A stretch of DNA of 64,000 nucleotides from Escherichia coli (GTDB lineage Bacteria > Pseudomonadota > Gammaproteobacteria > Enterobacterales > Enterobacteriaceae), in the NCBI RefSeq assembly GCF_003334305.1, contig NZ_QOWS01000006.1, one strand, 5' to 3'. Each line of letters starts with the position of its first letter. Position 1 is the stretch's first letter. Positions 3,001-6,000 of this stretch are shown here, piece after piece. A program made the position numbers.

Positions 3001-6000
3001 TGATCGGTCTTTTCATGATACAGAACGTTATCTACCGCAAAGTACTGCCCAAACTGGTCGTGTAGCGTTTCATGCCACTGTTTTTTTTCGGCCATGGGTT
3101 GATACCTCCTTTGTTAACACCCGTAAAAAAAGGGCGCAACATAATAGCTAACATTGACCGCGGATGCACGGTCAATATTTCTACAAAAAGGTATCAGGGA
3201 TTATTTGACGTAGGCAAGCAGGCTTAAGGAATCGCGGGCCAGGGCTTTGCATTTTTTAGCGACGGGAATGCCAATGCCGCTGAGATCGCGGTAGCTGTCT
3301 TCACCGAGGGCTTTCATGTCGAAGGTGTCGTAATTACTGAGATCCCACTGGTTTTGCTGGGCGAAAAAGACCAGTGCGCGACGAATTTGCCCGTTAGGTA
3401 AGTTCTGGTAACCACAATCGTTCTTCAGAAAGACAAAAACTGCCGTTAAATCGGCCATATCTTCGGCTTCAGACTCGCTGAGTGCGTAACTGTTTGCGCA
3501 AACGGCCATCAGGCTGCCGAATAACACTGTTCTGAAAAACGTCTTCATTGCTTCTACCAGGGGCTTAAAGAAGATAAACGTTAGCACACTGCGAGCGAGG
3601 CGACGACCATTATTGTCGATTAAATTGTGTCTGCGGCTTGACCTTCCCGTAAGGGGAAGGACTATGCTCAACGTTTGATTTTGTTTCGCCTGCTTAAGAA
3701 TAAGGAAATAACTATGCAACGTCGTGATTTCTTAAAATATTCCGTCGCGCTGGGTGTGGCTTCAGCCTTGCCGCTGTGGAGCCGCGCAGTCTTTGCGGCG
3801 GAACGCCCAACGTTACCGATCCCTGATTTGCTCACGACCGATGCCCGTAATCGCATTCAGTTAACTATTGGCGCAGGTCAGTCTACCTTTGGCGAGAAAA
3901 CTGCAACTACCTGGGGCTATAACGGCAATCTGCTGGGGCCGGCGGTGAAATTACAGCGCGGCAAAGCGGTAACGGTTGATATCTATAACCAACTGACGGA
4001 AGAGACGACGTTGCACTGGCACGGGCTGGAAGTACCGGGTGAAGTCGACGGCGGCCCGCAGGGAATTATTCTGCCAGGTGGCAAGCGCTCGGTGACGTTG
4101 AACGTTGATCAACCTGCCGCTACTTGCTGGTTCCATCCACATCAACATGGCAAGACCGGGCGACAGGTGGCGATGGGGTTGGCTGGGCTGGTGGTAATTG
4201 AAGATGACGAGATCCTGAAATTAATGCTGCCAAAACAGTGGGGTATCGATGATGTTCCGGTGATTGTTCAGGATAAAAAATTTAACGCTGATGGGCAGAT
4301 TGATTATCAACTGGATGTGATGACCGCCGCCGTGGGCTGGTTTGGCGATACGCTGCTGACCAACGGTGCAATCTACCCACAACACGCTGCCCCGCGTGGT
4401 TGGCTGCGCCTGCGTTTGCTCAATGGCTGTAATGCCCGCTCGCTCAATTTCGCCACCAGCGACAATCGCCCGCTGTATGTGATTGCCAGCGACGGTGGTC
4501 TGCTACCTGAACCGGTGAAGGTGAGCGAGCTGCCGGTGCTGATGGGCGAGCGTTTTGAAGTGCTGGTGGAGGTTAACGACAACAAACCCTTTGACCTGGT
4601 GACGCTACCGGTCAGCCAGATGGGGATGGCGATTGCGCCGTTTGACAAGCCGCATCCGGTAATGCGGATTCAGCCGATTGCTATTAGTGCCTCCGGTGCT
4701 TTGCCAGACACATTAAGTAGCCTGCCTGCGTTACCTTCGCTGGAAGGGCTGACGGTACGCAAGCTGCAACTTTCTATGGACCCGATGCTCGATATGATGG
4801 GTATGCAGATGCTAATGGAGAAATATGGCGATCAGGCGATGGCTGGAATGGATCACAGCCAGATGATGGGCCATATGGGGCACGGTAATATGAATCATAT
4901 GAACCACGGCGGGAAGTTCGATTTCCACCATGCCAATAAAATCAACGGTCAGGCGTTTGATATGAATAAGCCGATGTTTGCGGCGGCGAAAGGGCAGTAC
5001 GAACGTTGGGTTATCTCTGGCGTGGGCGACATGATGCTGCATCCGTTCCATATTCACGGCACCCAGTTCCGTATCTTGTCAGAAAATGGCAAACCGCCAG
5101 CGGCTCATCGCGCGGGCTGGAAAGATACCGTTAAGGTAGAAGGCAATGTCAGTGAAGTGCTGGTGAAGTTTAATCACGACGCACCGAAAGAACATGCTTA
5201 TATGGCGCACTGCCATCTGCTGGAGCATGAAGATACGGGGATGATGTTAGGGTTTACGGTATAAAAAGACCGTATTCGGAAATATGCCCGGATTTCTCCG
5301 GGCATTATGGTTACTTCACATCATCCGGCAGCGCATAAGCCACAATATAGTCGCCCATCTTCGTACCAAATGAACCGTGACCGCCTGCGGAGATCACCAC
5401 ATACTGCTTACCATTCACTTCATAGGTCATTGGCGTAGCCTGACCACCCGCTGGTAAACGACCCTGCCACAGTTTTTCACCGTTGCTCATGTTGTAAGCG
5501 CGCAGGTAGTTATCTGCCGTAGCGGCGATAAACAGCACGTTACCCGCCGTGGAGATTGGCCCGCCCAGCATCGGCATACCCATATTGAACGGCACCGGTA
5601 CAGGCATCGGGAACGGCATACTGTCCTGCGGCGTACCAATACGTTTCTTCCACACCACTTCATTGGTTTTCAGGTCCAGCGCCGAGATATAACCCCATGC
5701 TGGCTGTTTACACGGCAGACCAAACGGTGAGAGGAACGGGTTGAGCGTGACACCATACGGTACACCGTACTGTGGCTGAATGCCGGATTCCGTACCCGTG
5801 CCTTTGGCATCTTTCGGCTGCTCCATCGGGTTACCCGGACCGCGTGGGATCAGTTTCGAAACAAACGGCAGTGCCATTGGGTTGGCAATTGCCACTTCAC
5901 GATTTGGATCAACGGAAATCCCGCCCCATTCAAACATTCCCAGGTTACCCGGGAAGACCAGCGTGCCCTGTTCAGATGGCGGCGTGAAAATGCCTTCATA

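Follow-up and report, generated by a model that had tools for sequence, protein, structure and literature searches.

Cryo-EM of CueR transcription activation complexes on the copA promoter has given the operator core as CCTTCC-N7-GGAAGG and the promoter spacer as 19 bp, and has placed CueR on the face of the DNA opposite RNA polymerase, in contact with the non-conserved region of sigma-70 (PMC8169799). In that description the wider repeat overlaps the -35 hexamer by 3 bp, while the core alone overlaps it by 2 bp, and copA and cueO are named as the CueR targets. Holo-CueR activates the copA and cueO promoters, and apo-CueR represses both (PMC5329002). A PcueO-lacZ fusion has served as a metal-responsive CueR reporter, and the specific CueR-DNA signal in vivo is lost once PcopA and PcueO are deleted (PMC9396075). 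A comparative study of 2006 gives a CueR signal, includes cueO in the regulon, and describes a "yacC-yacK divergon" whose CueR site lies in a promoter having a 19-nt spacer, citing Outten et al. 2000 (PMC1526738). In passages of PMC8169799 and PMC1526738, the CueR site of K-12 cueO is credited to Outten et al. 2000 and to Yamamoto and Ishihama 2005; Cu(I)- and CueR-dependent activation of cueO, with repression by the apo form, is likewise reported in passages of PMC5329002, PMC9396075 and PMC8169799, the last of these citing Outten 2000.

We examined the corresponding locus in a 64-kb stretch of Escherichia coli DNA (the window, to which all coordinates refer unless K-12 is named). The DNA is chromosomal, and the genes around the site are, in order, acnB, yacL, speD, speE, yacC (minus strand), cueO (plus strand) and gcd, with acnB taken from the annotation of the matching RefSeq record. 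The intergenic region between yacC and cueO is 165 bp long (3549-3713). When 701 bp surrounding the site were searched against 5,426 complete E. coli genomes, a match was obtained in 5,425, with annotations of yacC and cueO beneath it; in most E. coli records the identity over this length is just 95-99%. Over the 81 bp surrounding the element, identity reaches 99% or more in 4,888 of 5,432 E. coli records. The yacC-cueO region also has ten matching places on E. coli records labelled as plasmids (for example NZ_CP154402.1 68845-68875), one of them a partial match of only 31 bp.

An earlier note on this DNA had read the region upstream of cueO as a MerR-type promoter containing a CueR operator. 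Our analysis confirms that the element is real and that this interpretation was correct; it is the cueO operator-promoter already described in the literature. The hexamers and the 19-bp spacer are as had been proposed (Table 1), but the dyad does not lie wholly within the spacer: its first two bases are also the final two C's of the -35 hexamer, a 2-bp overlap, and it ends 2 bp short of the -10. The start of the element at 3638 was likewise right, while its end had been set one base too far; the composite is 31 bp long and ends at 3668, with C3669 outside it. The two arms of the dyad, CCTTCCC (3642-3648) and GGGAAGG (3654-3660), are 7 nt long, 100% complementary and 5 nt apart according to the repeat finder, and the core within them matches the published CueR core exactly. 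This exact core and the 19-bp spacer bear out the view that this is MerR-family architecture. A scan of 3200-4000 for standard promoters with a 16-18 bp spacer returned none, so the reading of the promoter as one with an over-long spacer fits. The downstream gene is assigned to CueO with a score of 982 bits against the NCBIfam equivalog cut-off of 525, and YacC scores 197 bits against its own family cut-off of 80.

Table 1. Features of the yacC-cueO region in window coordinates, with mean identity to the window among aligned Enterobacteriaceae loci where it was calculated for the feature.
Feature	Position	Strand	Mean identity	Basis
-35 hexamer TTGACC of the cueO promoter	3638-3643	+	0.99	sequence reading and pattern search
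Spacer of the cueO promoter, TTCCCGTAAGGGGAAGGAC, 19 bp (2 bp above optimum)	3644-3662	+		sequence reading and pattern search
-10 hexamer TATGCT of the cueO promoter	3663-3668	+	0.91	sequence reading and pattern search
CueR operator dyad CCTTCCC-gtaag-GGGAAGG = CCTTCCCGTAAGGGGAAGG, 19 bp, centre 3651	3642-3660			repeat finder
Core half-sites			0.89	
Upstream flank	3617-3637		0.26	
Downstream flank	3669-3700		0.32	
Start of cueO transcription, from published K-12 data projected onto the window	3674	+		Cappable-seq, PMC4782308 supplement
Putative Shine-Dalgarno sequence AAGGAA of cueO	3702-3707	+		conserved block, mean identity 0.85 over 3701-3709
cueO, multicopper oxidase, 516 aa, twin-arginine signal MQRRDFLK	3714-5264	+		NCBIfam NF008205, RefSeq annotation
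yacC, YacC family pilotin-like protein, 115 aa	3201-3548	-		NCBIfam NF037975, RefSeq annotation
Candidate yacC promoter	3577-3616	-		two conserved blocks, about 80 Enterobacteriaceae

We considered whether the dyad might be a palindrome that arose by chance in an ordinary promoter. The 31-bp composite of -35, spacer and -10 has a single match in the window by exact pattern search, and the core CCTTCC-N7-GGAAGG occurs there once, where base composition predicts about 0.004 exact matches. Allowing up to one mismatch raises the expectation to 0.08 matches per window in dinucleotide-preserving shuffles, while the composite of core, upstream TTGA and downstream TAnnnT is expected only about 5e-7 times per window. 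Within the 188.7 kb of E. coli DNA examined, the exact core is confined to the cueO and copA promoters. What can be said for chance is that looser matches do exist elsewhere, as the window holds four further matches to the core at 2 mismatches; set against this are the very low expectations for the exact core and for the composite, and a coincidental palindrome is refuted by the conservation of the element in 79 of 80 species while its flanks diverge. We regard this explanation as having a negligible chance of being correct.

The four 2-mismatch matches were considered as further CueR sites and rejected: three lie in the coding sequences of cueO and fhuA, the fourth is a hairpin after degP in which the half-sites are spaced by N8, and -35/-10 context was found at none of the four. 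The degP structure (48718-48745) has a 10-bp stem, AACCCCTTCC-tgaaaacg-GGAAGGGGTT, that begins nine bp past the degP stop codon (48709), and its arms contain the CueR-like half-sites at N8 spacing with neither hexamer around them. It is probably a 3' hairpin of degP, and because it carries the half-site words, those words alone are not diagnostic of a CueR operator.

The conservation data come from 80 Enterobacteriaceae cueO loci, one genome per species, with 74-98% protein identity. The pattern TTGACN-19 bp-TAnnnT is present upstream of cueO in 79 of these. The core is recognizable in the same register with no more than 2 mismatches in 72 of the 80 loci, and seven more have variants with at least 3 mismatches at the same position, among them CCTTGCC...GGCAGGG in three. 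The single locus with no CueR box is that of Intestinirhabdus alba (L077), which has also lost its yacC neighbor; in that locus (1-1500), a fragment of a chemotaxis-receptor gene lies upstream of cueO in the same direction. When the 79 orthologous elements are aligned together with that of the window, giving 80 aligned elements, the invariant positions are TTGAC, C3642, T3645, C3647, G3655, A3657, G3659 and G3660, followed by T3663, A3664, C3667 and T3668 in the -10 region. The half-site contact bases are invariant in 78 loci, the exception among the 79 being L082, whose entry in the alignment table is shifted by one base and which has C in place of T3645. The -10 keeps the form TA-GCT across the 80 aligned elements, with T or A at 3665 and with G3666 in 79 of the 80.

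Averaged over the whole element, identity to the window is 0.83, versus 0.53 for the remainder of the intergenic region. Conservation of the operator does not extend to its perfect symmetry. In most genera the operator is asymmetric, the right half-site being GGAGGG, with G in place of A3658, in 57 of the 80 aligned elements. Perfect GGAAGG is found mainly in Escherichia and in some Citrobacter, Klebsiella and Raoultella, and the seventh base pair of the dyad is mostly a trait of Escherichia and Citrobacter.

A dyad of this kind might also work by folding into a nucleic-acid hairpin (a terminator, an attenuator or a cruciform, for example), with no protein bound to it. The 7-bp stem does form as single-stranded DNA (MFE -8.1 kcal/mol, z = -2.2), a weak plus-strand start upstream at 3633 would give a transcript passing through the dyad, and the similar CCTTCC/GGAAGG dyad after degP (48720-48743) resembles a 3' hairpin. 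The cueO dyad, however, has no T-run, no terminator is predicted there, and it sits between divergent genes, upstream of the main start. An Rfam search gave no match at E values up to 1. Nor is there covariation of the kind that would preserve pairing. Among 47 distinct orthologous sequences, complementary bases are found in 31 at 3646/3656, in 21 at 3648/3654 and in 14 at 3644/3658, and the conserved bases are invariant, as is expected of protein contacts. Since the variable positions do not covary, protein contacts are favored over a hairpin, which would also leave the fixed register of the dyad relative to the -35 and -10 unexplained. The lack of a T-run, of covariation and of an Rfam match led us to reject the terminator or structured-RNA reading, and it is highly improbable that the dyad acts through a hairpin of any sort.

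The operator reading receives further support from the position at which transcription is reported to begin in K-12. Window coordinates are obtained by subtracting 133,369 from the K-12 coordinate, and at 137 kb we take U00096.2 and NC_000913.3 to share coordinates. The supplement to PMC4782308 lists a Cappable-seq start on the plus strand at 137,043 of U00096.2, with a score of 6.37; on the window this falls 6 nt beyond the final base of TATGCT and 40 nt short of the cueO ATG. The cells in that experiment had no added copper, and the start speaks to use of the promoter rather than to its regulation. A second, weak plus-strand start lies at K-12 137,002 (score 1.8, versus 6.4 for the main start), which corresponds to the start at 3633 mentioned above; it precedes the cueO -35 by 5 bp, in DNA that shows no conservation beyond Escherichia, and transcription from it would read through the CueR dyad.

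To assign the element to a particular regulator, it is relevant whether the genome encodes CueR. The window does not include cueR, and the presence of the gene was checked in strain A7, the matching genome, and in K-12 MG1655. Both encode it; in strain A7 it is found three genes past copA, and its product reaches 309 bits on the CueR equivalog NF007590, whose cut-off is 244. Taken together, the anatomy of the promoter, the register shared with copA, the finding that the matching genome encodes CueR, the conserved geometry and the published start lead us to read the element as the CueR operator-promoter of cueO, of the sigma-70 type. The earlier assignment to CueR is thus upheld by an exact core, a copper gene immediately downstream and a geometry retained in 79 of 80 loci. 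We hold this reading with very high confidence, with CueR binding, copper dependence and DNA distortion taken from the literature, and among the checks made we found no evidence against it.

How such a promoter would work can be outlined by analogy. A separation of 19 bp would leave the -35 and -10 too distant, and wrongly phased, for RNA polymerase to contact the two together. CueR would occupy, as a dimer, the dyad CCTTCC-N7-GGAAGG from the DNA face opposite the polymerase and, when no Cu(I) is present, would hold the DNA in a repressing conformation. On binding Cu(I), Ag(I) or Au(I), CueR would kink and under-twist the spacer, realigning the hexamers so that transcription could start about 6 nt after the -10, at 3674. 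The resulting transcript would begin with a leader of some 40 nt and continue into cueO, the gene for the periplasmic cuprous oxidase. The CueR structures were solved on the copA promoter, and we infer the same distortion at cueO from an architecture identical to that of copA together with the reported CueR dependence. The earlier note had spoken of the activator untwisting the promoter; under-twisting is indeed part of the proposed process, but bending together with under-twisting would be a better description than untwisting alone.

The other side of the intergenic region belongs to yacC, which is divergent from cueO in 78 of the 80 loci, across an intergenic region of 140-200 bp. It had been suggested that the yacC promoter must fit into the remaining 90 bp or so. 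The distance is right, with 89 bp between the yacC start codon at 3548 and the cueO -35, and it is plausible, judging from the sequence, that the promoter is located there. Two conserved blocks are present in this interval. The first, 3577-3591, includes an extended -10-like sequence, TGcTAACGT (3586-3578 on the minus strand); the second, 3601-3616, includes a weak -35-like TCGTCG (3606-3601) and an AT-rich segment (3616-3609), also on the minus strand. Mean identity is 0.89 and 0.75 in these blocks, versus 0.26-0.48 in their flanks. The stretch 3577-3616 is a reasonable candidate for a yacC promoter arranged back-to-back with PcueO.

Such an arrangement raises the question of whether the bent operator, once bound by CueR, might modulate the yacC promoter as well, which would make it a bidirectional element and add to the main explanation instead of replacing it. 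The widespread divergence of the two genes, the "divergon" wording of PMC1526738, and a conserved yacC-side block ending about 8-21 bp from the cueO -35 are all consistent with this idea. On the other hand, we found no report of copper or CueR control of yacC in the literature, PMC9396075 and PMC8169799 give copA and cueO as the sole targets, activation of the MerR type works through the spacer geometry of one promoter, and the yacC promoter itself is only a candidate. We therefore consider bidirectional control unlikely. In the same way, it seems doubtful that CueR bending tunes the adjacent yacC promoter, that the GGAGGG half-site sets a copper threshold for cueO different from that of copA, or that both are the case.

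The significance of the cueO element is chiefly that of a positive control, in that a MerR-type promoter was recognized from sequence alone and all of the checks agree. It exemplifies, in textbook fashion, how DNA distortion activates a promoter, and copper biosensors use it as a standard part; its occurrence in another E. coli strain adds nothing new about copper homeostasis. The 80-species table is a minor by-product, recording the invariant bases of the operator and the asymmetric right half-site of most genera.

The architecture itself is generic to the MerR family, and we therefore considered whether the operator might belong to another member, such as ZntR, SoxR or a GolS-like paralogue, rather than CueR. 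In K-12, the zntA promoter, a target of ZntR, reads TTGACT-20 bp-TATCCT with half-sites ACTCTGGAGTCGACTCCAGAGT, and the soxS promoter, a target of SoxR, reads TTTACC-19 bp-TATACT with half-sites CCTCAAGTTAACTTGAGG; both have an over-long spacer and a dyad overlapping the -35, as cueO does. Salmonella, moreover, has a CueR paralogue with a CueR-type site (PMC1526738). The half-sites of zntA and soxS differ from those of cueO, however, and on direct reading of the K-12 promoters neither zntA-type (ACTCTGGAGT...) nor soxS-type (CCTCAAGTT...) half-sites are present at cueO. Because zntA and soxS share the architecture but not the half-sites, the cueO box is specifically of the CueR type. The literature gives PcopA and PcueO as the CueR targets (PMC9396075), and the core bases at cueO are those of copA, so that there is very little likelihood of a different MerR-family regulator acting here.

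The cueO operator-promoter of the window can be compared most closely with its counterpart in K-12 (yacK), from which it does not differ at any position within the element; the intergenic region as a whole is base-for-base that of K-12 MG1655 136,900-137,100. The strain is nevertheless not K-12, as the surroundings differ and the first 25 kb of the window (1-25000) are 100% identical to strain A7 (NZ_CP028767.1). The copA promoter, TTGACC-TTCCCCTTGCTGGAAGGTT-TAACCT, is identical in K-12 and strain A7, and it is the promoter on which CueR has been seen in the PDB structures 4WLW and 4WLS and in the cryo-EM CueR-TAC (PMC8169799). The comparison with the copA box that had been proposed as a check comes out in favor of the CueR assignment: the two promoters have the same -35 TTGACC, the same 19-bp spacer length and all 12 of 12 core bases in common, and in each the dyad begins at base 5 of the -35 hexamer. 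They differ in the central 7 bp (CGTAAGG in cueO, CCTTGCT in copA), in the two bases between the dyad and the -10 (AC versus TT), and in the -10 itself (TATGCT versus TAACCT), and the arms at cueO, unlike those at copA, extend to 7 bp of perfect symmetry.
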